Shown: positions 18,604 through 54,658 of the stretch, piece after piece | How the letters are laid out: every line of letters starts with the position of its first letter | Position numbering within the stretch: the stretch's first letter is position 1 | Assembly: GCA_964372875.1 (NCBI GenBank) | Contig: CAYJTB010000002.1 | Coordinates: 21,576 to 85,575 of the forward strand | DNA: 64,000 bases | Direction of reading: 5' to 3' | Source: an uncultured bacterium | GTDB taxonomy: Bacteria; Omnitrophota; Omnitrophia; Omnitrophales; JACQLI01 | Translations under genes and position numbers: made by a program | Notes under the pieces: generated by a model | Told to the model about the DNA's origin: nothing | The model's database searches: none | Seen by the model: the letters and a program-made list of their open reading frames with translations, nothing else

Positions 18604-19158
18604 GTGGGCAATAAGAAATATACCCTGCAAAGGGGGGTTACGATTTGGTTCACCGGTCTTCCTAGTTCAGGCAAATCCACGGTCGCCCGGATCTTGGAAC
18701 GCAATTTTCGCCAATGGGGTCTCAAATGTGAACTTTTAGATGGCGATGTGATCCGTACCAACCTCAGCAAAGGTCTGGGATTTTCCCGTGAAGACCGTGA
18801 CGCCAACATTAAACGCATCGGTTTTGTGGCGCACCTTTTGACCCGTAATGACGTCATTGCGATGGGTGCTGCGATTTCACCTTTCCGCGAAGCGCGGGAT
18901 TACAATCGCAAACTCATCGGCAATTTCGTCGAAGTGTTTGTGAAATGCTCTGTTGATGAATGTGAGAAACGCGATGTGAAGGGACTTTTTAAGAAAGCCC
19001 GCGCGGGAGAAATCAAAGGTTTTACCGGCGTGGATGATCCTTACGAAGAGCCGCTTCACCCGGAACTTATCTTAGAGACGGAAAAACAATCGGCTGAAGA
19101 GTCGGCGGATATCGTCGTGAAAAAATTGGAAGAGTTAGGATATTTGAAGGCTCAATGA
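18604..19158 (+). CDS. cysC: Adenylylsulfate (APS) kinase
   Basis: GTG start after GGAGGAG. P-loop GVTIWFTGLPSSGKSTVA, and a length typical of CysC. Confidence 0.9.
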   Translation: MGNKKYTLQRGVTIWFTGLPSSGKSTVARILERNFRQWGLKCELLDGDVIRTNLSKGLGFSREDRDANIKRIGFVAHLLTRNDVIAMGAAISPFREARDYNRKLIGNFVEVFVKCSVDECEKRDVKGLFKKARAGEIKGFTGVDDPYEEPLHPELILETEKQSAEESADIVVKKLEELGYLKAQ

Positions 19159-20000
19159 ATCAGGTCGATCTTCACATGCACACCACGCATTCCGACGGCA
19201 CTTTTCTGCCCCGGGATCTTGTGAAGCACGCGAAGGAGCGGGGACTCAAATGCATTTCCGTGACCGATCACGATACCATGTCGAGTTATGAGGAATGCCT
19301 TGATGAGTCAAAAAAGTTAGGGATCGAACTGATTCCAGGAATTGAAATCAGTGCCGATTTTGAGCCGGGGACCCTTCATATTCTTGGGTATTTTCTGGAT
19401 CCCGAGCAGCCGGAGCTAAAGAAAACGCTCCTCGATATTCAAAAAGCACGGCTTGAACGAAATCCTCAGATCATCAAGAAATTAAATAACATCGGAATTG
19501 ATATCACGCTGGAAGAAGTGATTGCTGAATCGGGCGGAAAACAAGTCGGGCGTCCGCATTTCGCGCGGGTACTTTTGAAAAGAGGCTTCATCAAAAACAT
19601 GGAAGAGGCCTTCCGAAAATATTTGGCCAAAGGAAAACCGGGGTACGTGGATAAACGCAGACTTTCTTCTAAAGACGCCATCCAGAGTATTCATCAAGCA
19701 GGCGGGATTGCATCCATCGCGCACCCTAAACAGATGAAACTCCAAGAGCCCGAACTTTCTAAAGAATTCGAGCGGCTCGTGGATGAGGGATTGGGTGGTA
19801 TCGAGGCGTACAATAGTTGCCAAAGCGCTGCCGAAGCCAAGATCTACAAGCAAATCGCAAAACGTTTTAATCTCATCGTTACAGGCGGTAGTGATTTTCA
19901 TGGCGCCAACAAACCCGACGTGCAGTTAGGAAGTTTTGGCGCAGACCTGGACTACAAAGTGATTGAAGACATGAAAAAGTTTGTATGGGTGAAGAAATGA
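19155..20000 (+). CDS. PHP-domain phosphoesterase, probably a 3',5'-nucleotide bisphosphate (pAp) phosphatase
   Basis: VDLHMHTTHSDGT...ISVTDHDT...GGSDFHG are PHP motifs. The gene is translationally coupled between cysC and cysH, which fits the COG0613 pAp phosphatase family. Confidence 0.7.
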   Translation: MNQVDLHMHTTHSDGTFLPRDLVKHAKERGLKCISVTDHDTMSSYEECLDESKKLGIELIPGIEISADFEPGTLHILGYFLDPEQPELKKTLLDIQKARLERNPQIIKKLNNIGIDITLEEVIAESGGKQVGRPHFARVLLKRGFIKNMEEAFRKYLAKGKPGYVDKRRLSSKDAIQSIHQAGGIASIAHPKQMKLQEPELSKEFERLVDEGLGGIEAYNSCQSAAEAKIYKQIAKRFNLIVTGGSDFHGANKPDVQLGSFGADLDYKVIEDMKKFVWVKK

Positions 20001-20024
20001 CCGTCATGACGAATTTGAGGAGCA

Positions 20025-20804
20025 ATGGTGTTGGCAGAACACACGCTTGATCTCGCAAAATTAAATCAGGAGTTCGAAAAGAAAAAGCCGGAAGAGATTA
20101 TTGCTTGGGCGATCAAAGCATTCCCCGGCAAAATCGCAATGACCTCTTCTTTTGGTCCGGAGTCCGGCGTTTTGCTTCATATGGCAAGCCAGATCGATCC
20201 GGGCGTACCCGTTCTTTTCTTAGAAACCGGTTACCATTTTCAGGAAACCATCGTTTATAAAGAAGAGCTCGTAAAACTTTTGGGTCTGACGCGTCTCGTG
20301 GATCTAAAGGCTGAGCCCAAGAGAAAAGCGGAAGTCGTAAAACAATACGAAGGCGTTCCCTACGAAAAAAATCCGGACCTCTGCTGCCAAATCAATAAGG
20401 TCGAGCCCATGGACTTGGCGATGAAAGATTTCGACGCGTGGATGAGCGGTATTCGCCGGCACCAAACGGATTTCAGAAAATCGATTCGCGTTTTTGAAGA
20501 GTACAGGAAACCCGAAACGGGAAACCATCTCTACAAAATTAGCCCCTTAGCCAATTTCACCAGCCGGGAAATGTGGTGGTATCTGAAAGAACACAATATT
20601 CCCAAACACCCTCTCTATGACAAAGGCTATCTCAGTGTCGGCTGCTGGCCCTGCACGCGCCCCGTTCAACCGGGCGATGATGAACGCTCAGGCCGGTGGG
20701 CCGGAAAAACAAAAACAGAATGCGGTATTCACACTTTTTTAGAGATAAAAGAAGAAGAGAAAAAGGAAAAGAAAGACGGAATCAATTATTCGGGTGGAAT
20801 ATAA
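20025..20804 (+). CDS. cysH: Phosphoadenosine-phosphosulfate / adenylylsulfate reductase (thioredoxin-dependent, with Fe-S-type cysteines)
   Basis: The PP-loop-like SSFGPESGVLLH, the C-terminal KTECGIH, and the CC...CxxC cysteines (DLCCQ, GCWPC) are typical of the APS-reductase subclass. Confidence 0.88.
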   Translation: MVLAEHTLDLAKLNQEFEKKKPEEIIAWAIKAFPGKIAMTSSFGPESGVLLHMASQIDPGVPVLFLETGYHFQETIVYKEELVKLLGLTRLVDLKAEPKRKAEVVKQYEGVPYEKNPDLCCQINKVEPMDLAMKDFDAWMSGIRRHQTDFRKSIRVFEEYRKPETGNHLYKISPLANFTSREMWWYLKEHNIPKHPLYDKGYLSVGCWPCTRPVQPGDDERSGRWAGKTKTECGIHTFLEIKEEEKKEKKDGINYSGGI

Positions 20805-20828
20805 AATGAAGGAGAATGATTACATCTA

Positions 20829-22001
20829 ATGATACAGCCCCACGGCGGTAAACTCATCAATCGTGAACTTTCTGGAAACGAAAAAGAAGAGGCCAAGAAA
20901 AAAGTCACAACCCTCAAGACACTTACACTCGCACCCTGCGAAGTTTCAGACCTTGAGATGCTTGCAACAGGTGCTCTGAGTCCCTTAGAAGGATTTATGG
21001 GCCAGGCGGATTTTAATTCCGTTCTGGAAAAAATGCACCTGGCAACGGGGCCTGTGTGGACACTCCCCGTCGTAAAATCCATCTCCGCCGAAGACAAAAA
21101 CAATTTGAAAGCAGGCGAAGAGGTTGCGCTTCAAGATGAAAAAGGCGAAGCACTTGCGATTTTAAAAATCGGCGAGATTTTTCCTTATGATAAAACCAAA
21201 CATGCCCAAAAGGCCTACGGGACTTTAGAAGAAACGCACCCCGGAGTTGCGCGCGTAATGAGCGCCGGAGGATTTTTAGTTTCAGGAAAAATTTCTCTTT
21301 TCCAACGGCCCAAATACACGGATTTTCTCCAATATCGCCTTGATCCCGCAGAGACCAGAAAAACTTTTGAATCACGCGGATGGAAAACCGTGGTGGCTTT
21401 TCAAACGCGCAATCCCATTCACCGGGCCCATGAATACATTCAGAAATGCGCACTGGAAATTGTGGATGGTTTGATGATTCATCCCTTGGTGGGTGCCACC
21501 AAGGGCGACGATGTCCCGGCCGCTGTCCGGATGCGTTGTTACGAAGTCCTCATTGAAAAATATTACCAAAAATCTCGTGTCCTTCTTTCGGTTTTTCCCG
21601 CGGCCATGCGTTATGCGGGCCCCAAAGAGGCGATCTTTCACGCGATTGTGAGAAAAAATTACGGCTGCACGCATTTTATTGTGGGCCGCGACCACGCCGG
21701 AGTTTCAAGACCCGACGGAAAAGGTTTTTATGGTCCCTTCGATGCCCAGAAAATTTTTGATGAATTCAAACCGGGCGAGATCGGTGTGACGCCCTTTTTC
21801 TTCGAAAATTCTTTCTATTGCCGCGCCTGCAAATCCATGGCCACGGAAAAAATTTGTCCGCACGATGCCTCGGGACGCGTCTTTTTAAGCGGGACCAAAG
21901 TCCGCGAGATGCTCCTCAAAGGAGAAATTCCACCGGAAGAGTTTTCACGGCCCGAGGTTGCGCGCGTTTTGCTCGAAGCTTACCAAACCAAGGAGAATTG
22001 A
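20829..22001 (+). CDS. sat: Sulfate adenylyltransferase (ATP sulfurylase)
   Basis: The motifs QTRNPIHRAHE and VGRDHAG are present. Confidence 0.9.
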   Translation: MIQPHGGKLINRELSGNEKEEAKKKVTTLKTLTLAPCEVSDLEMLATGALSPLEGFMGQADFNSVLEKMHLATGPVWTLPVVKSISAEDKNNLKAGEEVALQDEKGEALAILKIGEIFPYDKTKHAQKAYGTLEETHPGVARVMSAGGFLVSGKISLFQRPKYTDFLQYRLDPAETRKTFESRGWKTVVAFQTRNPIHRAHEYIQKCALEIVDGLMIHPLVGATKGDDVPAAVRMRCYEVLIEKYYQKSRVLLSVFPAAMRYAGPKEAIFHAIVRKNYGCTHFIVGRDHAGVSRPDGKGFYGPFDAQKIFDEFKPGEIGVTPFFFENSFYCRACKSMATEKICPHDASGRVFLSGTKVREMLLKGEIPPEEFSRPEVARVLLEAYQTKEN

Positions 22002-22976
22002 TTGTCCGCACCCCAAAGGACAAAACCTGTTCTTGCTGAAGAAGCCATCGGCCTCATCGGCAACACGCCGCTCGTAAAACTTAAAAGAATGGTGAAGCCG
22101 GGCTCCGCCCAAATTTTTGCCAAAATTGAATCGATGAATCCCGGCGGAAGTGTGAAGGACCGGATTTGTCTCAGCATGATTCGTGATGCGGAAGAAAAAG
22201 GCCTCCTCAAAAAAGATTCTGTGATCATTGAAGCCACGAGTGGAAACACAGGAATCGGCCTTGCCCTTATTTCTGCGGTGAGGGGCTACAAACTGATTCT
22301 TACGATGCCCGACTCCATGAGTTATGAAAGGCAATATCTTCTAAGAAGATTTGGGGCCGAGCTTGTTCTTACTCCGGCACTTGAAGGAATGAAAGGGGCC
22401 GTTGAAAAAGCCGAAGAGCTTTCAAAGAAATACAAAAATACTTTTACACCGCAACAGTTTAGTAACCCTGCAAACCCCAAAGTTCACCGCGAGACCACCG
22501 CGGAAGAAATTTGGGAAGCGCTGGACGGAAAATTCGATGCGTTTGTGGCGGGCGTCGGCACCGGAGGAACCATCACCGGATGCGGCGAGGTCTTTAAACA
22601 AAGAAATCCAAAAATTAAAATTATTGCAGTAGAACCTAAGCGTTCGCCCGTTCTTTCAGGCGGTGAGCCTGGGTATCACCGGATCCAAGGAATTGGCGCG
22701 GGTTTTGTACCTGAGGTCTTGAACCGGCGCATCATCGATCAAATTTATCAAGCAGACGATGAAGCCTCTTGGGACATGTCACTTACCTTGGCAAAAGAAG
22801 AGGGATTGTTGGTGGGCGTCTCTTCCGGCGCGGCCTGTGTTGTGGCGCTGCAAGTGGCCAGTGAACTGGGAACTGGAAAAAGTGTGGTAGTTATTTTTCC
22901 TGACACCGGCGAGCGTTACCTTACTTCTGCCGAAGAATTCACACCGCGCGAGAGCGGCGCAAAACGCACTTCATGA
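22002..22976 (+). CDS. cysK: Cysteine synthase A (O-acetylserine sulfhydrylase)
   Basis: TTG start. The PLP lysine block NPGGSVKDR, plus TSGNTGIGLA and GTGGTITG. Confidence 0.88.
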   Translation: MSAPQRTKPVLAEEAIGLIGNTPLVKLKRMVKPGSAQIFAKIESMNPGGSVKDRICLSMIRDAEEKGLLKKDSVIIEATSGNTGIGLALISAVRGYKLILTMPDSMSYERQYLLRRFGAELVLTPALEGMKGAVEKAEELSKKYKNTFTPQQFSNPANPKVHRETTAEEIWEALDGKFDAFVAGVGTGGTITGCGEVFKQRNPKIKIIAVEPKRSPVLSGGEPGYHRIQGIGAGFVPEVLNRRIIDQIYQADDEASWDMSLTLAKEEGLLVGVSSGAACVVALQVASELGTGKSVVVIFPDTGERYLTSAEEFTPRESGAKRTS

Positions 22977-22980
22977 AGCG

Positions 22981-24255
22981 ATGTCATACGTTAAGGGATT
23001 AAAATGCAGAGAGTGCAGCCGTCTTTATCCTAAAGAAGCGATCTATGTTTGCGAATACTGTTTCGGATCGCTCGAAGTTGATTACGATTATGACGCCATC
23101 AAAAAAGTCCTGAGCCGTAAAAAAATTTCTGACGGCCCTCGAAGCCTTTGGCGGTATCGCGAACTCCTTCCCATTGACGGCGACCCAACCGTAGGACTTT
23201 GGTCGGGCTTCACGCCTTTTTTCCGCGCGAAAAATCTGGCAAAGCGTCTGGGCGTTGACGAGCTCTACATTAAAGATGATTCGTCGAGCCATCCCACCTG
23301 GTCTTTTAAAGACCGCGTTGTCTCGATTGCACTTTCCAAGGCGCGCGAACTGGGTTTTGATACAGTCTCCTGCGCTTCCACCGGAAATCTTGCCCACGCT
23401 GTTGCGGCCCACGCGGCCCAAGCCGGATTCAAATGTTATATTTTTATTCCCTCGGATCTTGAACTCGCAAAAATTGTCGGCACGCTTGTTTGCGGTCCCA
23501 CACTCGTGGCGGTCCAAGGAAATTATGATGATGTGAACCGGCTATGCGCTGAAATCGCCGCCCGGTACAAATGGGCGTTTGTGAATATCAATATCCGTCC
23601 TTATTATGCGGAAGGATCCAAGACCTTCGGTTATGAGATCGCAGAACAGCTCGGCTGGCGAACACCTGACCACGTGGTGATTCCGGCAGCAAGCGGCTCG
23701 CTTCTGACAAAAATCTGGAAGGCCTTTAAGGAATTTGAAAAACTGGGGCTTCTTGAAAATTCCGTGAAGACACGTCTTCATTGCGCCCAACCGGACGGAT
23801 GTTCTCCTATCGCCAAGGCCATCTTGGAAAAATCCGAGGTGATCCGTCCTGAAAAACCCAACACGATTGCCAAATCTCTTGCGATCGGAAATCCCGCGGA
23901 CGGTTATTATGCCCGTGATGCCGTGCTACAATCGGGCGGTACCGCCGCACGTGTGAGTGATGATGAGATTCGCGAAGGGATTAAACTTTTGGCCGAGACC
24001 GAAGGTGTTTTTACAGAGACAGCGGGCGGCGTTACGGTTGCCGCAGCGAAAAAATTAATCAACGAAGGAAAAATCAACCGGAAGGAATCGATCGTTCTTG
24101 CCATCACAGGAAACGGTCTCAAGACCCAAGAGGCGATCCAAAAATCCGTGGGTTCACCCCTAGCGATCGAGGCCCACCTTTCTTCATTTGAAGAGCGCGT
24201 GATGGGAAAGTATAATGAGCAGCGTCGCGTCATTGCGAAGGAGCGAAGCGACTGA
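22981..24255 (+). CDS. Threonine-synthase-like PLP enzyme with an N-terminal zinc ribbon (possible MetM-type O-phosphohomoserine sulfhydrylase rather than a true ThrC)
   Basis: The N-terminal CRECSRLYPKEAIYVCEYCFG, the PLP lysine block HPTWSFKDR and ASTGNLA. It is followed directly by a ThiS/MoaD-like gene inside a sulfur-assimilation cluster. Confidence 0.7.
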   Translation: MSYVKGLKCRECSRLYPKEAIYVCEYCFGSLEVDYDYDAIKKVLSRKKISDGPRSLWRYRELLPIDGDPTVGLWSGFTPFFRAKNLAKRLGVDELYIKDDSSSHPTWSFKDRVVSIALSKARELGFDTVSCASTGNLAHAVAAHAAQAGFKCYIFIPSDLELAKIVGTLVCGPTLVAVQGNYDDVNRLCAEIAARYKWAFVNINIRPYYAEGSKTFGYEIAEQLGWRTPDHVVIPAASGSLLTKIWKAFKEFEKLGLLENSVKTRLHCAQPDGCSPIAKAILEKSEVIRPEKPNTIAKSLAIGNPADGYYARDAVLQSGGTAARVSDDEIREGIKLLAETEGVFTETAGGVTVAAAKKLINEGKINRKESIVLAITGNGLKTQEAIQKSVGSPLAIEAHLSSFEERVMGKYNEQRRVIAKERSD

Positions 24256-24304
24256 AGCAATCTCTTGTTGATTGCTTCGTTGGCTAACGCCTCCTCGCAA
24301 TGAC
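24229..24304. repeat. Long imperfect inverted repeat (GTCATTGCGA...TCGCAATGAC type REP-like hairpin), a possible attenuator or RNA-stability element
   Basis: The 5' arm gtcattgcgaaggagcgaagcgactgaagcaatc pairs with the 3' arm gattgcttcgttggctaacgcctcctcgcaatgac. The outer and inner segments pair and the middle forms an internal loop. The repeat overlaps the last codons of the ThrC-like gene. No U-tract follows. Confidence 0.7.
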
Positions 24305-24322
24305 TAATAAGGAGGATTCATC

Positions 24323-24607
24323 ATGCCTGTTAAAGTAAGAATTCCAACGCCCCTTCAAAAATTGACGGCCGATCAAGCGGAAGTCGATATTACTGCCAAA
24401 ACGGTGAAAGAACTTTTAGATGCATTAGAAAAGAAATATCCCGGCATCAAAGGAAGACTTTGTGACGAATCGGGCCGCGTGCGCCGGTTTGTAAACATTT
24501 ATCTCAACGAAGAAGACATCCGGTTCCTCAACCAAGAATCCACGGCACTTAAAGAGGGCGACGAGGTTTCCATCGTTCCTGCCATTGCCGGCGGAAAAAC
24601 TCTCTAA
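24323..24607 (+). CDS. ThiS/MoaD-family sulfur-carrier protein with a C-terminal GG followed by a 3-residue extension (KTL)
   Basis: The SD AAGGAGG lies upstream. The 94-aa sequence has the beta-grasp pattern ...[10 protein letters not shown]...[17 protein letters not shown]. Confidence 0.8.
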
Positions 24608-24854
24608 GATCACCGTGGCAAAAAAAGCGCTTCACCTTATCTTTCCGCAAAATCTCATCCAAGAGCCCATCATGTTCCTGGTGGCTCGCGACAACAATTT
24701 AGTCCTCAGCATTCGACGCGCGAAGATCACAGCGACCGCTGGAGAAGCGACCATCGAACTTGAAGGAAAAGAGAGCGATTTGGTCCAGGCCGAGCGCGTT
24801 TTCAAAGAAAAAGGGGTTCAGGTGAAAAGTGTTTTAGGGGACACGGTGGAATGA
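24585..24854 (+). CDS. NIL-domain (ferredoxin-fold, MetN C-terminal-like) small protein
   Basis: [46 protein letters not shown]...[12 protein letters not shown] resembles the NIL domain. The start is either ATG 24585 (overlapping the previous gene) or GTG 24615. Confidence 0.6.
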
Positions 24855-25855
24855 AAAAAGCCGAGATCCAATCTTTAAAAGAAAAAGTTTTAGCGGGCGG
24901 TGAAATTTCTTTTGAGCAGGCTGTGGAACTTATTCAATTAAACAGCCAGGAAGAAATCCAATCCCTTTTAGAATCGGCCGACGAAATCACGCGACGGTTT
25001 AATTCCAACGAACCCGGCCTCTGTTCGCTTCTAAATGCCAAGAGTTATTTGTGCGGCGAGGACTGCGGGTTTTGCGCCCAATCCGTTCGCTTTGACACCT
25101 CGGCAGACCGGTACGGCCTGATGCATCCCGAAAAAGTTGTGGAGGCCGCAAAACGGGCGGAAAAAAATGGTGCGCAGAATTTCTGCATCGTTACAAGCGG
25201 CGCGGCACCGGGTGAAGAAGAGTTTGAAAAAATTATCGAAATTTTAAAAAAGTTATCTGAGGAATCAAAATTAAACCTTGATGCCTCGTTAGGGTTTATC
25301 ACCGAAGAACAGGCCCGGCGATTAAAAGAAGCGGGCCTCCGGCGTTTTAATCACAATCTTCAAAGCTCCCGCGAGTTTTACCCGAATATTGTTTCTACCC
25401 ATAGTTATGACACACGCATTCAAACCATTCGCGCGCTGGTCCAAGGCGGACTGGAGCTTTGTTCGGGTGGAATCCTCGGAATGGGAGAAACGCACGAAGA
25501 CCGTGTGAAGCTCGCTTTCGAATTAAAACAACACACTCCGCATTGCATCCCAGTCAACGTACTCAATCCCCGGCCCGGCACTCCGCTTGAAAACCAACCC
25601 AAGCCCGACCCGCGTGAGATTTTAAAAACCATTGCTGTCTTTCGCTTCGTCCATCCGCGCGCCAATATCAAATTAGCCGGCGGGCGTGAAATCAATCTCA
25701 CTGCGGAGGAGCAAGTCTTGGCACTGAAAGGCGGTGCCAACGGCCTCATCATGGGAGGCTACCTCACCACCGAAGGCAATCCGGTGCGGGAAGATTTTCG
25801 AATGCTGGAGGAAGCGGGCTACCAAGTTCCACAGCATGAAGCCCGTCCTTCTTAA
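24851..25855 (+). CDS. bioB: Biotin synthase (radical SAM)
   Basis: CGEDCGFCAQS is a CxxxCxxC motif, and the length and downstream blocks are typical of BioB. Confidence 0.9.
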   Translation: MKKAEIQSLKEKVLAGGEISFEQAVELIQLNSQEEIQSLLESADEITRRFNSNEPGLCSLLNAKSYLCGEDCGFCAQSVRFDTSADRYGLMHPEKVVEAAKRAEKNGAQNFCIVTSGAAPGEEEFEKIIEILKKLSEESKLNLDASLGFITEEQARRLKEAGLRRFNHNLQSSREFYPNIVSTHSYDTRIQTIRALVQGGLELCSGGILGMGETHEDRVKLAFELKQHTPHCIPVNVLNPRPGTPLENQPKPDPREILKTIAVFRFVHPRANIKLAGGREINLTAEEQVLALKGGANGLIMGGYLTTEGNPVREDFRMLEEAGYQVPQHEARPS

Positions 25856-25857
25856 GT

Positions 25858-26577
25858 TTGCTTGATCAAAAAAATATCCTCATTACCGGCGGCACCAGCG
25901 CGTTAGGAAGCGCCTTCGTCCGAAAGGCCGTTGGGGCGCACGGCCGCGTTTTTTTCACCTACCATCAGCATGAAACGCTCGCTTCCGAACTCCGCGCACT
26001 AGGCGCAGAAGGTTTTAAACTAGACCTCGCCTCTACCCCACAAATCGATGTCTTCCAAAAAGAATTCAGGGCCAAGGTCAAAATCCTTCATGTCTTAATC
26101 CACAATGCTGCGGCCACGAAAGATGCTACTGTACAAAATATGAGTGACGCCCAGTGGGATGAAGTGATGAACGTCAATCTCAAGGCACCCTATCTTTTAA
26201 CAAAAAAACTTTTGTCTCCGCTTTTTAAGGCTGATCCCGCGAAGATCTTTTTTATGATCAGCCGGGGCGCTCTTCAAGGAATCTTTGGCGCTGCTAATTA
26301 TGCGGCTTCTAAGGCAGGCCTTGTAGCGCTTACCAAATCACTGGCCCAAGAACTGGGGCGGAAAAATATTTTGGTCAATTCCGTGAACCCGGGCTTCATG
26401 AAATCGCGCATGACCGAGCCTCTCCCGCCGGAAGTTTTTGAAAAAAATATCAAAGAAAGCGTGTTGGGAAAAATCTCTAACCCCGACGAAGTCGCCGATT
26501 TTCTAATTTACCTTTCCAGTAACCACATGACCCAAGTGAGCGGCCAAATCTTCCACTTCGAGTCCCGCAAGATATGA
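25858..26577 (+). CDS. Short-chain dehydrogenase/reductase, 3-oxoacyl-ACP reductase-like (FabG-like)
   Basis: TTG start. ILITGGTSALGSAF is the Rossmann motif, and YAASKAG is the catalytic YxxxK. Confidence 0.8.
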   Translation: MLDQKNILITGGTSALGSAFVRKAVGAHGRVFFTYHQHETLASELRALGAEGFKLDLASTPQIDVFQKEFRAKVKILHVLIHNAAATKDATVQNMSDAQWDEVMNVNLKAPYLLTKKLLSPLFKADPAKIFFMISRGALQGIFGAANYAASKAGLVALTKSLAQELGRKNILVNSVNPGFMKSRMTEPLPPEVFEKNIKESVLGKISNPDEVADFLIYLSSNHMTQVSGQIFHFESRKI

Positions 26578-26582
26578 AGCGC

Positions 26583-27117
26583 GCAGAATCTCCGCCTCCG
26601 TGGGATGCTCGGTCATCAGTAAAATCTTTATCCGCTGCAGGCACGAGTCTCGTCGCCACTCGGCGGGAATCCCCCCAAGCTCCTTCGGCGCTCAATGGCT
26701 CCAGCTTTTGGAAAAGACTAAGGCTGCTTCGCCGGGGGTCCCTCGCGGTTCCGGCCTCAGAAGGCCAGCCCGCGCTTCCCCCCCGGACGAATCAGCCGAG
26801 TTTTTCCGAAAAGCCTCCGCTATTCGCGCCCTCCGGACTTGGGGAGATTCCCGAACGTATCACGGTTGCATTAGAAGCAGAATCTCCGAAACTGAGGCGG
26901 CGTAGGGGCCGTACGAGAAAAATTCGGAATCAATTTTTCTCGAGGCCCCACGAGCGGAGGACGACTCCTTGTCCGCTGACTTACCCCTCATTCATGGTTG
27001 CATCTTCCCAGAATACGTTTGCTTCCAAACCGGCCGCGTTCATTTGGCAAAATAACTTTTATGTTTTCTCATCTGTTCAATTGTCGTCCGAGCGTCCGCC
27101 GAAGGAGGAGATTCTGC
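26583..27117. other. Non-coding, GC-rich, highly self-complementary 535-nt element bounded by imperfect 18-nt terminal inverted repeats (a MITE-like insertion or a large structured RNA)
   Basis: GCAGAATCTCCGCCTCCG (26583-26600) faces CGAAGGAGGAGATTCTGC (27100-27117). There is long-range 14/15 complementarity between 26665-26679 and 26838-26852, and a hairpin at 26905-26949 with a perfect 10-bp core. No frame gives a protein-like translation. Confidence 0.6.
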
Positions 27118-27133
27118 TATCAAAGCATGTCGG

Positions 27134-28375
27134 TTGCGGAGGAGTCTCCGAAACGGCAAGGGGAGTTTGCTTGTGAATCGACGAGTTGTGATTACAGGAA
27201 TGGGGGCGGTGACGCCGGCAGGGGTGGGGATTGAGGCATTTCGAAAATCACTGCGGGAGGGCCGGTCGGGATGCGGACCCTTAACATGTTTTGACCTCAC
27301 AGGATTCAAAGTCAAAAATGCTTTCGAGATAAAAAATTTCACACCCCTTCACGGAACCCGTCTCTTGGATCCTTTTATTCAATACGCACTTTGGGCTACC
27401 AATGAAGCGGCTCAGATGGCGCAATTTGATTCTTCATCCATGGATCCTTACCGAATGGGAATTGTGGTCAGTTCCAGCAAGGGAGGGCTTCACTCTTTTG
27501 ACGCGTTTCGCCAGAGGCTTGAACGAAATCCCAGCGTCATCCTTGGCGCGCGCGTTTACTCCAACACGGTTCCGAATTTTGCCGCCCAGTGGATTGCCAG
27601 AAAATGGAAAATATCAGGACCCGCCAAATGTTATGTGACAGCTTGCGCAACGGGTACGACCTCCATTATAGAAGGCGCCCGGATGGTTCAGGAAGACCTG
27701 GTCGATTATGTTTTTGCAGGTGCAGGCGATGCCTCACTTGTTCCTTTTCTTGTGGCAGGGTATGAGCAAATGGGAGTTCTTTCACCCGAGGGAATGTACC
27801 CCTTTGACCAAAGGCGGAAAGGTTTTCTTTTAGGAGAAGGCGCGGGTGTGGTACTCCTCGAAACCCTCGAAAGCGCCGAAGCGCGCGGCGCAAAAATTTA
27901 CGGCGAGATCGCAGGCTTTGCTTACGGAAATGATTGTTACAGTCCGGTGGCCTTTGATCCCAAAGGAGATTCACTCGCCCGAACACTCAAAAAACTTTGT
28001 GATGTTTTAAAAATAAACCCTGAGGAAATCGATTATTTAAACCTTCACGGTACCGGAACCATCGATGGCGATCTTTACGAAACGAATCAAATCAAACGGG
28101 CGTTTGGAAAAAAAGCTTATGAAATTCCTACTAGCTCCACGAAGTCGATCACAGGACACATGCTTGGCGCATCCGGGGCTGTTGAAATCATCGCGTGTTG
28201 TATCGCCATGGAAGAAGGTTTTGTTCCGCCTACCGCCAATTTAGAAAAACCGGATCCCCAATGCGATTTGGATTACACACCGCTCAGGGCACGCAAGCAA
28301 AAAATCCAAACGGCGATTTCTCATTCCATGGGTTTCGGCGGACATATCGCAGCCGTTGCTCTTAGGAAAACATAA
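27134..28375 (+). CDS. Beta-ketoacyl-ACP synthase I/II-like condensing enzyme (FabF-like)
   Basis: RRVVITGMGAVTP, the active-site ACATG and the C-terminal HGTGT...GHxxGAxG blocks are present. The true start is probably TTG 27167 or GTG 27173 rather than ATG 27134. Confidence 0.85.
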   Translation: MRRSLRNGKGSLLVNRRVVITGMGAVTPAGVGIEAFRKSLREGRSGCGPLTCFDLTGFKVKNAFEIKNFTPLHGTRLLDPFIQYALWATNEAAQMAQFDSSSMDPYRMGIVVSSSKGGLHSFDAFRQRLERNPSVILGARVYSNTVPNFAAQWIARKWKISGPAKCYVTACATGTTSIIEGARMVQEDLVDYVFAGAGDASLVPFLVAGYEQMGVLSPEGMYPFDQRRKGFLLGEGAGVVLLETLESAEARGAKIYGEIAGFAYGNDCYSPVAFDPKGDSLARTLKKLCDVLKINPEEIDYLNLHGTGTIDGDLYETNQIKRAFGKKAYEIPTSSTKSITGHMLGASGAVEIIACCIAMEEGFVPPTANLEKPDPQCDLDYTPLRARKQKIQTAISHSMGFGGHIAAVALRKT

Positions 28376-29518
28376 ATGGAAAGCCTCCTTACCACAGAAT
28401 TAAAAGAAATTCGCTTGAAGGGACTCTACCGGAAATTAAAAACGCTTTCTCCCGGCCAAGGCGCCCATGCCGTTTGGCGAGGAAGAGATCTCCTTTTATT
28501 TTGCGGAAATGATTATTTGGGTTTAAGCCGGCACCCTCGTGTTATTCAAGCCGCCCAGGAAACCCTTGAAAAATATGGCATTGGCGCCGGTGCCGCTCGT
28601 TTGATCTCCGGCACAAGCGATTTGCACAGCCAATTGGAAGAGGAACTCGCCCGCTTCAAATCAAAAGAGCGAGCGCTCCTTTTCGGTTCAGGTTATCTGA
28701 CCAATCTTGGAGTCTTGAGTGCCGTTGCCGGAAAAGAAGATCTCATTGTGATGGATAAACTTTGCCACGCCTCACTCATTGACGGGGCCAGACTCTCCGG
28801 CGCCATCATCCGAGTGTTTCCTCACAGAGACTATTCAAAGTGTAAGGAGATTTTAGAAAAAAGCCCCGAGTTTCGCAGGAAAATTCTTGTCTCCGACACT
28901 ATTTTTAGTATGGAGGGTGACCAAGCAGATTTAGAAGAACTTATTCAGATCAAAAATAAGTATAAGTGCCTTCTTGTGGTTGATGATGCGCATGGCGTAG
29001 GAGTCTTCGGCCCGACGGGCAGAGGACTCACCGAGGGAAAAGAAAAAGAAATCGACGTCATTGTGGGGACGCTTTCAAAGGCCTTCGGAGTTTTTGGGGG
29101 TTTTGCCGCAGCCTCTCGAACCCTCGTCGAATATTTCATTAATTTCTCGAGGTCTTTTATTTTTGCGACCGCACCGCCGCCGCTCGTCGCGGCCGCTGGT
29201 TTAGAGGCGCTTCATCTCATTCAAGAGGATCCATCTCTGCGTCAGAAGCTTTGGCGCAATATAGAACAAGTAAAAAAATTTCTCAAACCCCGGAATTTTT
29301 CATTTGAAAAAGCATCGCCTATTTTTCCAATTGTTTTAGGAGATGAGAAAAAAGCCGTAGAAGTTTCAGAGACACTTTTGGAACATGGAATCCTCATCCC
29401 CCCCATTCGGTACCCTTCCGTTCCAAGAGGTAAAGCAAGGCTGCGATTAACGTTAAGCGTCTCCCACACGGAAGAAGATTTGGAACAACTCTTCGAAGTA
29501 CTCCATAAAGTTTTATGA
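28376..29518 (+). CDS. bioF: 8-amino-7-oxononanoate synthase
   Basis: Alpha-oxoamine synthase blocks: NDYLGL, VVDDAHG, and GTLSKAFG with the PLP lysine. Confidence 0.88.
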   Translation: MESLLTTELKEIRLKGLYRKLKTLSPGQGAHAVWRGRDLLLFCGNDYLGLSRHPRVIQAAQETLEKYGIGAGAARLISGTSDLHSQLEEELARFKSKERALLFGSGYLTNLGVLSAVAGKEDLIVMDKLCHASLIDGARLSGAIIRVFPHRDYSKCKEILEKSPEFRRKILVSDTIFSMEGDQADLEELIQIKNKYKCLLVVDDAHGVGVFGPTGRGLTEGKEKEIDVIVGTLSKAFGVFGGFAAASRTLVEYFINFSRSFIFATAPPPLVAAAGLEALHLIQEDPSLRQKLWRNIEQVKKFLKPRNFSFEKASPIFPIVLGDEKKAVEVSETLLEHGILIPPIRYPSVPRGKARLRLTLSVSHTEEDLEQLFEVLHKVL

Positions 29519-30870
29519 GAACAAGACACCTCAAGCAACTCGACAAGAAATATATTTGGCATCCCTTTACGCAAATGGCGGATTGGCAAAAAGAAGACGT
29601 CCTGATTATTGATCGGGCCAAAGGAAATTATTTGATTGATACAAAAGGCAAACGCTATTTGGACGGTGTATCCTCTCTTTGGTGCAACGTTCACGGGCAC
29701 CGGGTAAAAGAAATCGACCACGCCATCAAAAAACAATTGGAAAAAGTAGCACACAGCACTTTTCTCGGGCTTTCCAATGTCCCGGCCATTGAACTCGCCG
29801 AAAAATTAATTTTGATTGCACCGAAAGGACTCACACGGGTTTTTTATTCGGACTCGGGGTCCGAGGCCATGGAAATTGCTCTCAAGATGGCTTACCAATA
29901 TTGGCAGCAAAAAGGAAAAAAGAAGAAGACAAGGTTTCTACGCTTAAGCAATGCTTATCATGGAGACACATTGGGTGCGGTGAGTGTGGGAGGGATCGAA
30001 CTCTTTCATCAAACTTATCGCCCGCTTCTTTTTAAAACCTTCGAGGCGCCGAGTCCCTATGTTTACCGCTGGCCCGCGAAAGGCCGCACAGGGTCGCGCG
30101 AAGAAGTGATGGAAGAGTCTCTAGCCGCACTCGAATCTATCCTGAAAAAACATTCTTCAGAAATCGCCGCACTGGTGATGGAGCCTTTGATACAGGGAGC
30201 GGCCGGCATGATCGATCAACCGAGGGGTTATATTTCAGGAGCGCGAAAACTGACCTTGAGGTACAATACCCTCTTGATTTTTGACGAAGTAGCCACAGGA
30301 TTTGGTCGTACAGGACGGATGTTTGCGTCAGATCACGAAAGGGTGACTCCGGACATTATGGCCGTTGCCAAAGGGCTCACAGGAGGTTATCTCCCACTTG
30401 CGGCAACTCTAACCAAGGAAAACGTTTACAAGGAATTTCTTGGCGACTACTCCGAATTCAAAACTTTCTTTCACGGCCACACTTATACGGCCAATCCGCT
30501 TGCTTGCCGGGCGGCCCTCGCCAACCTCAAAATTTTCCGCACGAAAAAAACGCTTGAGAAATTGCAGGATAAGATCGATCTCTTAAGGAACAGATTGAGT
30601 AGCTTTTCAAATCTCGAACACGTCGGAGACATTCGCCAAACAGGCTTTATGGCCGGAATCGAACTCGTAGAAGATCGCGCTACAAAAAAATCATATCCTG
30701 CGGAACAAAAAATAGGCATCCGTGTGACCCGCGAAGCGCGCAGACGCGGGGTGATTTTACGGCCCTTAGGAAATGTCATCGCCCTCATGCCGCCTCTTGC
30801 GATTACAACCAAGGAACTTCATCAATTGCTAGACGTTACCTGCGAATCCATTAAAACGGTAACCCAATGA
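29515..30870 (+). CDS. bioA: Adenosylmethionine-8-amino-7-oxononanoate aminotransferase
   Basis: Class-III aminotransferase blocks: YSDSGSEAME, IFDEVATGFGRTG and AKGLTGGY. The start overlaps bioF by 4 nt. Confidence 0.9.
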   Translation: MRTRHLKQLDKKYIWHPFTQMADWQKEDVLIIDRAKGNYLIDTKGKRYLDGVSSLWCNVHGHRVKEIDHAIKKQLEKVAHSTFLGLSNVPAIELAEKLILIAPKGLTRVFYSDSGSEAMEIALKMAYQYWQQKGKKKKTRFLRLSNAYHGDTLGAVSVGGIELFHQTYRPLLFKTFEAPSPYVYRWPAKGRTGSREEVMEESLAALESILKKHSSEIAALVMEPLIQGAAGMIDQPRGYISGARKLTLRYNTLLIFDEVATGFGRTGRMFASDHERVTPDIMAVAKGLTGGYLPLAATLTKENVYKEFLGDYSEFKTFFHGHTYTANPLACRAALANLKIFRTKKTLEKLQDKIDLLRNRLSSFSNLEHVGDIRQTGFMAGIELVEDRATKKSYPAEQKIGIRVTREARRRGVILRPLGNVIALMPPLAITTKELHQLLDVTCESIKTVTQ

Positions 30871-31598
30871 AAAAAGCCGCCGGAATTTTTATTATAGGAA
30901 CGGACACAGGCGTCGGAAAAACCGTGGTGGCCGCAGGACTTGCCCTTGTCTTGAAGGAACGCGGCATGCGGGTCGGTGTGATGAAACCCGTAGCGACCGG
31001 ATGTTTTGGAGAGGGGAAGCGGCTTATTTCAGGAGATGCGGTTTATTTATTAGAAGCCGCTGAAAACGAGCGCCCTTATCTTGCCAATCCGCTTCGTTTT
31101 AGAAATCTGCTGGCCCCCAGCGTTGCCAGCGTCATTGAAAAAAAAGAAGTGCCGATTGAAAAAATCTTGAAGGCCTACCGGGAGCTGCAGCGTCATTATG
31201 ATTTTATTATTGTCGAAGGAATCGGCGGACTTTTAGTTCCGCTCACAAAAGATTATTTTGTGGCCAATCTCATTCACGAATTTGGTCTTCCTTTGATGGT
31301 GGTTGCCCGGGGGGGGCTCGGAACTATTAATCACACGCTTCTTACAATAGATGCAGCAATCATTCGGGGGTTTGAAATCCGGGGTATCATTTTTAACCGG
31401 ATGCCGCGTGTCAATTTCTCCATAGCGGAGATCACGAATCCTAAAGTGATCCACGACATCACAGGCATTCCCGTGCTCGGGACGTTGCCGGAACTGGATG
31501 ATGTGGACGTAGAAACCTGCCGCTTTGGGAATCTCAAAGAAGTCTTCCGCGAACGGATTGATCTGGACCAGCTTTTCCGGTTCGAGACCATTTCTTAG
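30867..31598 (+). CDS. bioD: Dethiobiotin synthetase
   Basis: The P-loop GTDTGVGKT and VEGIGGLLVP. The start overlaps bioA by 4 nt. Confidence 0.9.
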   Translation: MKKAAGIFIIGTDTGVGKTVVAAGLALVLKERGMRVGVMKPVATGCFGEGKRLISGDAVYLLEAAENERPYLANPLRFRNLLAPSVASVIEKKEVPIEKILKAYRELQRHYDFIIVEGIGGLLVPLTKDYFVANLIHEFGLPLMVVARGGLGTINHTLLTIDAAIIRGFEIRGIIFNRMPRVNFSIAEITNPKVIHDITGIPVLGTLPELDDVDVETCRFGNLKEVFRERIDLDQLFRFETIS

Positions 31599-31676: not shown

Positions 31677-32762
31677 ATGAAACCAGTGCTTAGGAATCAA
31701 AAAATCCTTGTCGCAATGTCCGGGGGAGTGGACTCGAGTGTGGCGGCCGCTTTGCTTGTGGAGGCGGGCCATGAAGTCGCCGGGGCCACCATTAGGACAT
31801 GGGCGAGCAGCACGTGTGTGGACCGGAACACGCGCTCCTGCTGTGGTCTGACCGGAGTCGAGGATGCGCGAAGCGTGGCCGAGCGGATCGGCATCCGTTA
31901 TTGGGTTTTTAATTTTGAAGAAGAGTTTAAACGCCACGTCGTCGATTATTTCGCCAGCGAATATTTCAAAGGCCGAACCCCCAACCCCTGTATTGCCTGT
32001 AATGAACATATCAAGTTTCGCCTTTTCTTAAAACGCGCCCGCCAACTCGGTTTTGACGCCATCGCCACAGGCCATTATGCGAAGCTCCAAGAAGATCACG
32101 CGGGCAATTGTTATATCGAAGAAGGTGCAGATCCCGCCAAAGATCAATCTTATGTTCTTTTTCCTCTCGATCAAGATGTCTTAACGAATCTTTATCTGCC
32201 GCTGGGAGGTTATCAAAAATCGGAAATCCGTCAGAAGGCGCGCGATCTGGGTCTCAGTGCTGTGATGGAAAAACCGGATTCCCAGGAGATTTGTTTTATC
32301 CCAAGCAATAACCACGGGATTTTTTTACAAAAAGAATTCGATGCCCCTCAACAGGAAGGCGTCATCCGGACAAGAGAAGGAAAGATCCTTGGAAAACACA
32401 CGGGTTATTATCAATATACAAGAGGCCAGCGCCGGGGCCTTGGTGTTGCCTTTACTGAAAAACTTTATGTCCTCGAAACGATCCCCGAAACCAACGAAGT
32501 GATTGTCGGGACCAAAGACGAAGTGCTGGATGTGGAGTTTTGCGTTGCGCGGGTCAATTGGTTTTTAAGGCCTCAAGAAAAAAATTTCAAGGCCCTTGTG
32601 AAAATCCGGTCTCAGCATGTGAAGGCCCCTGCTCAAATCGAGATTCTGAAAGATCAGGAAGTCCGGGTCCATTTTGAAGAGCCCCAAGAAGCCGTCACAG
32701 CAGGTCAGGCCGCCGTTTTTTATGACGGCACCAAAGTTTTAGGTGGCGGGTGGATTGCGTAG
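31677..32762 (+). CDS. mnmA: tRNA-specific 2-thiouridylase
   Basis: The PP-loop VAMSGGVDSSVAA and the blocks ATGHYA and KDQSYVLF. Confidence 0.9.
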   Translation: MKPVLRNQKILVAMSGGVDSSVAAALLVEAGHEVAGATIRTWASSTCVDRNTRSCCGLTGVEDARSVAERIGIRYWVFNFEEEFKRHVVDYFASEYFKGRTPNPCIACNEHIKFRLFLKRARQLGFDAIATGHYAKLQEDHAGNCYIEEGADPAKDQSYVLFPLDQDVLTNLYLPLGGYQKSEIRQKARDLGLSAVMEKPDSQEICFIPSNNHGIFLQKEFDAPQQEGVIRTREGKILGKHTGYYQYTRGQRRGLGVAFTEKLYVLETIPETNEVIVGTKDEVLDVEFCVARVNWFLRPQEKNFKALVKIRSQHVKAPAQIEILKDQEVRVHFEEPQEAVTAGQAAVFYDGTKVLGGGWIA

Positions 32763-33640
32763 ACAAACTCCAGCTTCTTAGGGAGGTCACACTCTCCTAT
32801 AAGAAAGTTCTCGTGGCCTTTTCGGGCGGCGCGGATTCTGCTTTCGTTTTAAAAATTGCCCGCGATGTCCTGGGAAAAGAAAATGTCCTTGGCGTGATTG
32901 CCAAAAGCCCTTCACTTCCCGCGGCTGAACTCGAAGCCGCCAAAAAAATTGCCGAGGAAATTGATGCCCCGCTTCAAGTGATAGAAACGAATGAGCTCGA
33001 AAATTCTTCCTACACCTCCAACTCCATTAACCGCTGTTACTTTTGCAAAACCGAACTTTATTCCCACATGATTCCCTTAGCCCAAAAATTGGGATACCCC
33101 TTTATTTTGAATGGCACGAATCAAGATGACTTAGGGGATTGGCGCCCCGGCCTTAAGGCCGCTGCCGAATACGAAATTAAAAGTCCGTTGGTCGAAGCTG
33201 GTTTTACTAAATCAGAAATCCGCGAGACCTCTCAGTCGCTCGGGCTTTCCACTTGGTCCAAGCCCCAGGCCGCTTGTCTTTCCAGCCGCATTCCTTTTGG
33301 GACTTCGATTACGCCGGAAAGACTCAGCCAAGTCGAAGTCGGAGAAAGCATCCTTAAAGAGCTTGGATTTGAAATCGTGCGCCTTCGCTGGCTCCAAGAA
33401 ACAGCGGTGATTGAAGTCGGCTCTGACGAAACCGGAACTTTTTTTCAAAACCAACACGTGCGCGAAGAATCTCTAGCGAGACTCAAAGCCCTTGGCTTTC
33501 AAAGGATTCAACTTGATCTTCTTGGCTACCGCTCCGGCCGTTTCAATCCAGCGAAATCTTTCTCGCGACCTCTCTTGCCTTCGCCGGACGCTCAGGCGAC
33601 AATCGAGAATACAGAATCAAAACTGGAATATTCCAAATGA
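32750..33640 (+). CDS. PP-loop ATP-utilising enzyme of the LarE / TIGR00268 family (possible sacrificial sulfur transferase)
   Basis: GTG start. The PP-loop VAFSGGADSAFV, CYFCK, and AACLSSRIPFG, which resembles the LarE cysteine motif. No larB or larC is present in the window. Confidence 0.7.
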   Translation: MDCVDKLQLLREVTLSYKKVLVAFSGGADSAFVLKIARDVLGKENVLGVIAKSPSLPAAELEAAKKIAEEIDAPLQVIETNELENSSYTSNSINRCYFCKTELYSHMIPLAQKLGYPFILNGTNQDDLGDWRPGLKAAAEYEIKSPLVEAGFTKSEIRETSQSLGLSTWSKPQAACLSSRIPFGTSITPERLSQVEVGESILKELGFEIVRLRWLQETAVIEVGSDETGTFFQNQHVREESLARLKALGFQRIQLDLLGYRSGRFNPAKSFSRPLLPSPDAQATIENTESKLEYSK

Positions 33641-33998
33641 GGCGAGAGAACGAGAAAGCAAAACTTATTTGTGAAGATGCAGAATCCAAGATTAAAACGG
33701 ATAAGGTGTCGCCTTCGTTCGATGGACCTGGCGAAAAATCTTTTCCGGATTTTTCGCCGACGGTCCAACGCCGACTCCGGCTAATGAGAGGTCGCTTAAA
33801 AAATGGTTTCTCTTGCGGAAGGACACGGCCTGGGCGCGCTCGGAAGGCCGAGCGGGCATGGACTGGCCACCCAATCACTGTCTCTTATTTCTCTTATGGC
33901 CAGGAGCGAGGCCGGACGCGCGGGCGAAACACGCCTCGCTGAGGCGTGTTGAGCGGCGAACGGGACGTTGTACTTCCGCTTGTGGAACTAATCCTGTC

Positions 33999-41714: not shown

Positions 41715-43136
41715 ATGGCTAGAGAAAGAGAAAGAGAACGAGAAAGAACAAGTAACCCAGCAGGAAGAAGAACCAACGATGTCCCCAAACCGGTTTCGGT
41801 GGAAGAGACGGAGTCCCGGCCCCCGATCCAAAGACAGGAGCCGCCGCCTACTACTTTTACGCGGCCCGATGGAGACAGGGGGCTTGATGTTGCCAGCCTC
41901 AAGAAGATGAAGATCAATGATCTTCATGACTTGGCGAGGAAATTCAAAGTCGAGCTTCCCACCGGCATCAAAAAACAGGATTTGATTTTTAAAATCTTGG
42001 AGGCGAAGGCCAAAGAATCCGGGCTCATGTATGGGGAAGGCGTCCTTGAAATCCTCCAAGACGGATTTGGATTCCTGCGCTCTCCCAATTACAATTATCT
42101 TCCTTCGCCGGATGATATTTATTGCAGCCCAAGCCAAATCCGGAAATTTAATTTAAGAACCGGTGACACGATAAGCGGACAAATTCGCTCCCCTAAAGAG
42201 GGCGAGCGTTATTTTGCGCTGCTGAAAGTGGAAGCGGTCAATTATGAGGATCCCGAAGCCATCAGGGACAAGATTCCTTTTGATAACCTGACGCCTCTTT
42301 ACCCGGAAGAAAAAATTCGTCTGGAAACTGCGCCCAACGAAATTTCGATGCGGGTTATGGATCTTCTGACACCCATCGGAAAAGGGCAACGCGGATTGAT
42401 TGTAGCCGCACCTTACAGCGGCAAGACAGTCCTCCTGCAAAAAATCGCCAATAGTGTTACGCAAAATCATCCGGAGGTTTATCTGATCGTCCTTTTGATC
42501 GATGAGCGTCCGGAAGAAGTGACAGACATGCAGCGTTCGGTGAAAGGCGAAGTCATTTCTTCCACCTTTGACGAACCGGCTGAGCGGCATGTGCAGGTGG
42601 CGGAGATCGTTTTGGAGAAAGCGAAGCGGCTGGTGGAACACAAACGCGACGTCTTGATCCTTCTTGATTCGATCACACGTCTTGCGCGGGCGTACAACAC
42701 GGTCGTGCCGCATTCAGGAAAGATTCTCTCAGGCGGTATCGATTCCAACGCGCTCCACAAGCCCAAGCGTTTCTTCGGTTCCGCAAGAAACGTCGAAGAG
42801 GGCGGAAGCCTTACGATCATTGCGACAGCTTTGGTCGACACGGGTTCGCGCATGGACGATGTCATCTTTGAAGAATTCAAAGGAACCGGCAACATGGAAC
42901 TTCAGCTCGACCGGAACCTTTTCCAGCGGAGAATTTATCCCGCCATCGATGTCAAAAAATCCAACACTAGAAAAGAGGAGCTTCTGCTTCCCTCGGATGA
43001 ACTTCAACGGGTTTGGATCCTCCGGAAAGTTCTCAATGAACTGAATCCGACCGAGGCGATGGAACTTTTGGTGAACCGTTTGGCAAAAACCAAAAGCAAC
43101 AGCGAATTTCTCTCTAACATGAATAAAATGGAGTAA
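41715..43136 (+). CDS. rho: Transcription termination factor Rho, with an arginine/glutamate-rich N-terminal extension
   Basis: The Rho N-terminal and RNA-binding blocks ([19 protein letters not shown]), Walker A APYSGKT and the C-terminal RIYPAIDV. The N-terminus begins [19 protein letters not shown]. Confidence 0.93.
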
Positions 43137-54645: not shown

Positions 54646-54658
54646 AAAACCGAGTTCT

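Follow-up and report, generated by a model that had tools for sequence, protein, structure and literature searches.

What fills the space between two genes of an otherwise compact biotin cluster? The window analysed here, a stretch of 64,000 nucleotides (nt) of the Omnitrophota contig CAYJTB010000002.1, carries such a cluster, in which a non-coding insert separates a fabG-like gene (25858-26577) from a fabF-like gene (27173-28375); the remaining bio genes are contiguous or overlap by their coordinates, in agreement with the first-pass annotation of this DNA. That annotation left three explanations side by side, namely a MITE (miniature inverted-repeat transposable element), a structured RNA or leader for the downstream bio genes, and the decayed remnant of acyl carrier protein (ACP) and dehydratase genes. 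We consider it likely that the insert represents a compound copy from a MITE-like family of interspersed repeats, a kind of selfish DNA that is non-autonomous, bounded by inverted repeats and structured into hairpins, and across this insert the flanking genes may stay coupled.

The gap itself is real, but it measures 595 nt (26578-27172) and not the 556 nt first proposed, because fabF starts at GTG 27173 instead of TTG 27134. This start is indicated by the lengths and N-termini of the FabF homologues, approximately 120 proteins annotated as Candidatus Omnitrophica or Omnitrophota, which comprise ~400 amino acids (aa) and begin with M-N/T-R-R-V-V-I-T-G-M-G. Measured on the contigs of these homologues (designated here by L numbers), the fabG/fabF junction contains no insert in five relatives with FabF proteins 61-77% identical (L005, L010, L012, L014 and L015), such that the two genes overlap directly in three of the five (TAAATG, TAATG or ATGA) and are separated by a spacer of ~10-15 nt in the other two; where the junction is empty and overlapping, FabF identity is 70-77%. 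The junction is filled in the window as well as in L001, L003, L004, L008, L009, L011, L016, L018 and L020, where the insert ranges from 97 nt (L016 and L018) and about 180 nt (L011) to 400 nt (L001), 656 nt (L004) and more than 1200 nt (L008 and L009, which are 99% identical and collinear). In L004, the insert aligns to the window insert in reverse complement, with collinear flanking genes, and has no left inverted-repeat copy. In L020, the FabF of which is 89% identical, the left terminus AAGCAGAATCTCCGCCTACGTGG follows the purN stop codon and a segment of 148 nt (1099-1246) is inverted with respect to window 26877-27119.

The insert in the window, copy A, is built from several pieces of the family. 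Its left terminal inverted repeat (26583-26612) copies part of the R module's 3' end in inverted form (GCAGAATCTCCGCCTCCGTGGGATGCTCGG) and is also recovered as a minus-strand nhmmer fragment match at 26583-26613. The L' module (26664-26853, plus strand) forms one long imperfect hairpin closed by CGGGAATCCCCCCAAG and CTTGGGGAGATTCCCG, and has collinear homologues at other loci in both DNA alignments and nhmmer searches. The R module (26875-27118, plus strand; nhmmer E = 1.8e-51) is the conserved repeat unit of the family, where helix P1 pairs AAGCAGAATCTCC (26875-26887) with GGAGATTCTGCT (27107-27118), the P2 hairpin occupies 26905-26949, and the core pairs CGAGCGGAG and GGACGAC (26951-26965) with TGTCGTCC and GAGCGTCC (27082-27097), including helix P3 (26959-26965 with 27083-27089). 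The 3' end of R constitutes the right terminal inverted repeat (27088-27117), which finds partners both at 26583-26612 (30 nt) and at 26875-26887 (12-13 nt). The fabF-proximal spacer (27119-27172, plus strand) holds the relic of an older R-module 3' end (GAGTCTCCGAAACGGCAAGGGGAGTTTGCTT, 27142-27172) that supplies the Shine-Dalgarno sequence of fabF (AAGGGGAG, 27158-27165), and window 27144-27249 aligns to L001 1691-1799, where a complete R module ends at the fabF start.

The sequence features first noted within the gap are borne out, in part in extended form. The inverted 18-mers at 26583 and 27100 match at 16 of 18 positions and belong to a terminal inverted repeat of 30 nt with 83% complementarity (26583-26612 with 27088-27117); with up to three mismatches, 0.05 matches to the 18-mer are expected per window by chance, and none of 100 shuffles reaches two matches. 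A third copy of GCAGAATCTCCG is present at 26877, and the long-range complementarity covers 16 nt at 94% (26664-26679 with 26838-26853). The hairpin within 26905-26949 has perfect arms of 11 nt (26914-26924 and 26932-26942) lying within GGGGCC/GGCCCC, whereas the smaller GGCC-tcagaa-GGCC hairpin (~26752-26765) is the apex inside the L' hairpin. The insert is GC-rich, at 56% with a peak of 63% compared with 47.9% for the whole window, and highly structured, with a minimum free energy (MFE) of -242 kcal/mol against -187 +/- 7 kcal/mol for dinucleotide shuffles (z = -7.7) and an MFE structure that pairs its two termini. It contains no tandem direct repeats. The promoter and terminator scan found no promoter-like or terminator-like site within the insert and a single sigma-70-like site inside fabF.

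A second copy resides in the same window at an unrelated locus. Sensitive blastn of all junction inserts against all collected sequences located copy B on the minus strand (33566-33981), between a PP-loop/LarE-like gene and rnfC (start 33999), where an R module (33566-33814) is joined to an L-type hairpin (~33806-33981). Window 26894-27111 matches 33777-33571 at 68.5% identity over 222 nt (E = 2e-17), and nt 8-187 of the L001 insert match window 33979-33783 (E = 2e-21). Copy B, which nhmmer detects with E = 3.7e-53, is collinear over ~410 nt with the whole L001 insert, despite the different locus and genome. Open reading frames (ORFs) chain through it (32750-33640, 33637-33942 and 33813 onwards), such that ~25 C-terminal codons and the stop of the upstream PP-loop ORF (32750-33640) fall inside the element and a 101-aa ORF (33637-33942) comes next with an ATGA overlap. 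No further copies beyond A, B and the inverted fragment at the left end of A were found by nhmmer in the window.

With the copies in the window included, the family amounts to a total of ~20 copies in at least ten unrelated gene contexts and in both orientations relative to the host genes. Besides fabG/fabF in the window and its relatives and PP-loop/rnfC for copy B, these contexts comprise purN/fabF (L020, with purN read from the translation), nuoG/nuoH (L053), lptG and the convergent ahcY (L050), the 3' side of a leuA/cimA-like gene (L045), the region upstream of a gene read as coxB from its translation, without a Pfam scan (L043), the positions after trpS/tyrS (L054) and after anmK (L056), and the junction of hemC with a tetrapyrrole methylase (TP_methylase) gene (L055). 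Head-to-head copy pairs occur in L020, L044, L008 and L050. Some of these loci were reached through the 200-aa ORF that spans copy A (26574-27176), for which a full HMMER search (phmmer) of 1.84 billion representatives returned four ORFs with 33-53% identity; the three that were obtained as DNA (L054, L055 and L056) are read-throughs of homologous L'+R composites, and the fourth also lies between two co-directional genes. A strict two-motif scan of 185,579 species genomes gave 11 matches, where ~9 are expected by chance from an information-content estimate. Five of the 11 are in Omnitrophota, and blastn and nhmmer identify all five as family members, three of them on separate contigs of one metagenome-assembled genome, JACQLI01; the six matches outside Omnitrophota have no similarity beyond the motifs. 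Viral contigs contained no match to either the long-form or the short-form pattern, and the two-motif core regular expression produced no stray matches in ~250 kb. The family is known so far only in Omnitrophota.

The first-pass annotation had proposed blastn for further copies, which would point to a MITE, and multiple dispersed copies were indeed found. It had also held that the claim would fail if the region were absent from close relatives and had no other copies: the element is absent in some relatives, but copies exist elsewhere, and this combination is the pattern that a mobile repeat predicts.

Several smaller repeats accompany these junctions. The 97-nt mini-element in the fabG/fabF gap of L016 (2701-2797) and L018 (2580-2676) opens with the family terminus AAGCAGAATTTCTCC and includes a GCCTGCCGGCAGGC hairpin, and its hairpin part is 90% identical to L053 4667-4717, just 3' of nuoG. 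In L011, a 1.1-Mb contig, a different GC-rich palindromic insert bounded by GTCATTGCGAG and CTCGCAACGAC lies between bioF and bioA (5300-5540) and shares a CCGCC-AGAGGCGGA-CCGCC hairpin repeat with L004 4854-4936. The junctions of the bio operon seem to gather several small repeat kinds. In L020, purN and two head-to-head copies precede fabF (511-1531) and replace bioB-fabG, which places repeats at a change of gene order.

The dispersed copies share a conserved fold. The R alignment consists of P1 (AAGCAnAnTCTCC ... GGAGAnnnTGCTT), a variable P2 hairpin and an invariant core, CGAG-Y-GAG + NNCGAC ... GTCGNN + C-GA-R-CGTCC, the halves of which are spaced by ~110 nt in the long form and ~19 nt in the short form. 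The R module accordingly measures ~240 nt or ~150 nt, and composites measure 410-600 nt; most of the 12 R copies in the alignment have P1 (AAGCAGAATCTCC / GGAGATTCTGCTT). These 12 copies were analysed with RNAalifold and explicit pair counting, and nhmmer profiles served as the search model of the family. Pairing is found in 90.4% of cells, compared with 73% for shuffled and 36-57% for slid partners, and 21 of 29 R-module pairs show compensatory change on both sides; none of 500 shuffles reaches any of these measures. In helix P3, pairing reaches 100% of cells and four of the seven pairs covary, and the Y-R pair beside it covaries as well (six U-A, five C-G and one U-G). From established nucleic-acid chemistry, the invariant GA/GA dinucleotides between P3 and the Y-R pair are capable of tandem sheared G.A pairing, their context being 5'-Y-GA-R-3'. 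The R module folds into a single long and irregular hairpin, in the invariant core of which CGAG-Y-GAG and C-GA-R-CGTCC flank the covarying 7-bp helix, and this subterminal core is more conserved than the termini. For L', the consensus fold of six copies (window, the reverse complement of L004, and L053-L056) contains 62 pairs, of which 14 are compensatory. The two strands behave alike, with consensus energies of -16.1 and -15.3 kcal/mol, similar single-sequence MFEs, and roughly balanced counts of G.U and A.C in a 10-copy fold. Neither strand folds better than the other, and nothing marks one of them as a functional RNA; the structure may matter in RNA, in single-stranded DNA or in both.

Taken together, dispersed copies, terminal inverted repeats, a lack of conserved coding, both orientations and empty sites all speak for the MITE interpretation, while neither a target-site duplication nor a cognate transposase was found. 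Modules of 150-250 nt and composites of 410-600 nt have the size and non-coding nature of MITEs, and several copies occur per genome, with two in the window and three on JACQLI01 contigs. Most likely, a fabG stop/fabF start that once overlapped received one or more such elements, perhaps in repeated insertions. The window copy would then comprise, in order, the inverted 3'-end fragment (26583-26612), L' (26664-26853), R (26875-27118) and the older R relic (27142-27172). As the sole origin of the L004 arrangement, a simple flip between the two 30-nt repeats was rejected because L004 is without the left repeat; its orientation is better explained by an insertion that was independent or nested.

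The inverted repeats could alternatively define an inverton, where the 30-nt repeats act as recombinase sites and flipping of the enclosed DNA switches expression of fabF-bioFAD on and off. Repeats of typical size and spacing, the inversion at the same junction between relatives (L004 and L020 compared with the window) and the recurrent head-to-head pairs are all in keeping with such a switch. Nevertheless, ~10 unrelated loci are not expected for a locus-specific switch, the left repeat that a flip of a window-like unit would leave beside fabF is missing in L004, and the only sigma-70-like promoter found by the scan lies within fabF instead of within the element. Moreover, the window encodes no invertase or integrase, and inversion is seen between different organisms only, with L008 and L009 being collinear. 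We therefore regard an inverton as very improbable.

Somewhat less probable still is a cis-regulatory structured RNA, either a riboswitch-like leader or a processing or stability element for fabF-bioF-bioA-bioD, as one of the initial explanations had it. Strong covariation and invariant internal-loop sequences would suit an RNA, and in L020 the element precedes fabF behind an unrelated gene. In addition, the downstream gene in L001, L020, L011 and L053 has its GGAG Shine-Dalgarno sequence within the 3' strand of P1, so that this closing helix could mask it. A leader of the bio genes is nonetheless at odds with the ~10 unrelated loci, many of them unrelated to biotin, with the occurrence in both orientations, including antisense to host genes, with the absence from relatives that have intact bio clusters, and with the lack of strand asymmetry in folding. 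Nor is there a match in Rfam 15, where the best E-values were 1.1 and 2.3, far under the gathering scores, and five other copies gave nothing. Biotin riboswitches are not known to have been reported, so that a claim of one would have attracted notice; the gap is no candidate for such a riboswitch and should not be pursued as a biotin-responsive RNA.

The 200-aa ORF that spans the insert on the plus strand (ORF200, 26574-27176) raises the question of whether the gap is a gene after all. Its ATG overlaps the fabG stop codon (ATGA, 26574-26577) and its TGA overlaps the fabF GTG (GTGA, 27173-27176), and a genuine, fast-evolving small-protein gene of the bio cluster would account for 200 open codons with a coupled start and stop and for the four ORFs at 33-53% identity. 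We consider this very improbable, since those ORFs are located at unrelated loci, each filling the space between called genes, and the DNA displays hairpin covariation instead. Compared with L054, L055 and L056, substitutions are spread evenly over the three codon positions of ORF200 (66/65/68, 76/70/71 and 61/53/58, respectively), and the same DNA alignment contains many frame-shifting indels of 1 or 2 nt. The product is of low complexity and rich in R, S and P. It has no Pfam family, nor do the ten longest stretches free of stops in the other frames match one, even at E <= 1; a word-indexed search of 5.8 billion clustered proteins retrieved only ORF200 itself, and the full HMMER search nothing except repeat-derived ORFs. 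The ORF of copy B likewise had no homologue in a protein search. At the same junction, the ORFs of L001, L004, L008 and L011 are unrelated in sequence, as for L001 and L004, or share motifs that are read in other frames. The initial view that ORF200 is open but not protein-like holds; ORF200 is a read-through of the repeat and not a conserved protein, with its peptide probably being junk. In annotation, this "hypothetical protein" of 200 aa and its look-alikes elsewhere are accordingly to be treated as repeat read-throughs and not as genes.

The least credible explanation, decayed ACP/dehydratase genes of Desulfovibrio-type bio clusters, draws its support solely from the location among the fab-like genes of the cluster and can be dismissed, because no frame matches a Pfam family, no protein or Rfam match emerges, phmmer finds only repeat copies from unrelated loci, and fabG and fabF overlap directly, with nothing between them, in relatives.

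If the insert is a selfish, MITE-like repeat, how might the operon tolerate it? An untranslated, structured spacer of 0.6 kb would be expected to cause polarity, because the genome encodes Rho (rho at 41715-43133). Across nine loci, we compared the longest stop-free run in any of the three host-strand frames with dinucleotide shuffles, which gave p-values of 0.025 for copy A, 0.029 for L001, 0.033 for L004, 0.087 for L053, 0.58 for L011, 0.07 for copy B, 0.05 for L008, 0.88 for L020 and 0.001 for L050. By our calculation, the Fisher combination for the host direction is ~3e-5, or ~1e-3 without L050, whereas the antisense frames of the same nine sequences combine to p ~0.24. Openness follows the host direction both in sense copies (copy A, L001 and L053) and in antisense copies (L004, copy B and L050), and the open frame is the one joined to its neighbours by ATGA, GTGA or TAATG overlaps. 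In the window, L001 and L053, each of the two ends has such a stop/start overlap, in L004 and L011 the downstream end has one, and an ORF overlapping the flanking stop and start is also seen in L054. The element would be co-transcribed with the operon and would retain a stop-free host-direction frame linked by ATGA and GTGA to both neighbours. Ribosomes leaving fabG could then translate across the insert and melt its hairpins, which would avert Rho-dependent polarity and be followed by re-initiation at fabF. On this statistical footing, we rate translational coupling across the insert as roughly an even proposition.

Several observations weigh against the interpretation as a MITE-like repeat with retained coupling. 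Inspection by eye of the flanks of ~10 copies revealed no consistent target-site duplication, with an occasional TA or TTA at ends that are blurred by age and nesting. The search of the window for a transposase or recombinase gene turned up housekeeping genes only, and none was seen in the fetched loci, which were not scanned systematically; the term MITE in its strict sense is thus provisional. With identities of 56-70%, the copies are old and need not have moved recently, and those at fabG/fabF could partly be orthologous with later rearrangement. The conservation of the subterminal core is unlike that of a classical MITE mobilised by a DDE enzyme, and its function could lie in RNA or in single-stranded DNA. 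With respect to coupling, the openness statistic draws on few loci with shared ancestry, L020 and L011 show no excess, and L054-L056 had to be excluded from the count since they were found through the ORF search. The contrast is weak for the R module alone, which has a stop-free host-direction frame in 8 of 11 copies, compared with 4 of 11 for the antisense direction.

The overall organisation is similar, but distinct, to that of several known bacterial repeats. As in the MITEs and palindromic repeats Correia/NEMIS of Neisseria, ERIC of enterobacteria, RUP and Nezha, the Omnitrophota elements are small and non-coding, with terminal inverted repeats and long hairpins, and their copies are dispersed between genes, including within operons, in either orientation and with presence or absence varying between relatives. 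The Omnitrophota family differs in being larger and compound (240-nt modules and 410-600-nt composites), in that no TA or other target-site duplication was seen and no partner insertion sequence is known, and in that its best-conserved part is not the termini, but the subterminal covarying helix with its tandem G.A flanks. From bacterial MITEs, genes next to them can acquire promoter or ribosome-binding sequences (PMC3184786). According to two sources (PMC12548453; PMC3184786, citing Supply et al. 1997), mycobacterial interspersed repetitive units (MIRUs) are intercistronic elements whose ORF overlaps the flanking stop and start codons (-4 spacing), which is thought to preserve coupling after insertion. 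The intercistronic site and the ORF that overlaps the flanking codons (ATGA 26574 and GTGA 27173) are shared by the window insert. In contrast to MIRUs, which measure 40-100 bp, often form direct tandem arrays and occur in mycobacteria only, it is a hairpin of 0.25-0.6 kb that ends in inverted repeats and occurs in both orientations, but not in tandem. The resemblance lies in a possible mode of action, not in membership; by sequence, size and host, the family belongs to none of Correia, ERIC and MIRU.

REP sequences are 20-40 nt long, have a conserved GTAG end and depend on the RAYT transposase. With REP, BIME and REPIN sequences the Omnitrophota family shares GC-rich, structure-conserving palindromes, head-to-head pairs and a location inside transcription units, but its units comprise 150-250 nt, and the aligned copies show no evident GTAG-type end, for which no dedicated search was made. 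Rickettsia palindromic elements (RPE) insert in frame within genes, and are likewise palindromic selfish DNA compatible with translation in the host frame. The element studied here is instead situated between genes as a separate, coupled ORF, even though copy B provides the ~25 last PP-loop codons. By analogy, and as speculation, the structure-conserving subterminal core might be where a folded strand is recognised, as for REP/RAYT or IS200/IS605-type elements. Two further proposals are put forward tentatively, their joint likelihood being low: either the family is an operon-compatible element selected for a host-direction open frame with -4/-1 overlaps in either orientation, which would represent an independent MIRU-like strategy, or its core is the site of an unrecognised single-stranded-DNA mobilisation enzyme or an RNA-binding or processing site, with the copies modulating bio, nuo, rnf and hem operons.

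In the literature, we found no paper linking Omnitrophota with MITEs or such repeats, and a family of interspersed, structured repeats is described here for the first time in this phylum, which is known almost exclusively through metagenomes. The family may help to explain assembly breaks at such loci, and it offers a natural test of how tightly coupled operons tolerate long structured insertions. If the retention of an open frame is true, the MIRU idea of selfish DNA that keeps coupling extends to another phylum and to a very different architecture.

The genes surrounding the insert are arranged as follows. On the 5' side, a ThiS-like gene (24323-24607) and a NIL-domain gene (24585-24854) lead into bioB (24851-25855), which precedes the fabG-like gene; on the 3' side, fabF is followed by bioF (28376-29518), bioA (29515-30870) and bioD (30867-31598). 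Sulfur-assimilation genes are located 5' of bioB (18604-24854) and encode an APS kinase, a PAPS reductase-family protein, an ATP sulfurylase and two PALP enzymes, ahead of the ThiS-like and NIL-domain proteins. The order PALP-PALP-ThiS-NIL-bioB recurs in L004, and an ATP sulfurylase gene is also found upstream in L005 and L006. This run of genes may constitute a dedicated sulfur-donor route for biotin synthase. Farther away, a 554-aa ORF with no Pfam family (52981-54642) overlaps the start of a PALP-enzyme ORF (54314-55555) and could be either a true orphan gene or one more read-through region. Reports exist of very large proteins in Omnitrophota, and on the minus strand of the window a giant single ORF of ~4,108 aa extends over 6108-18431.

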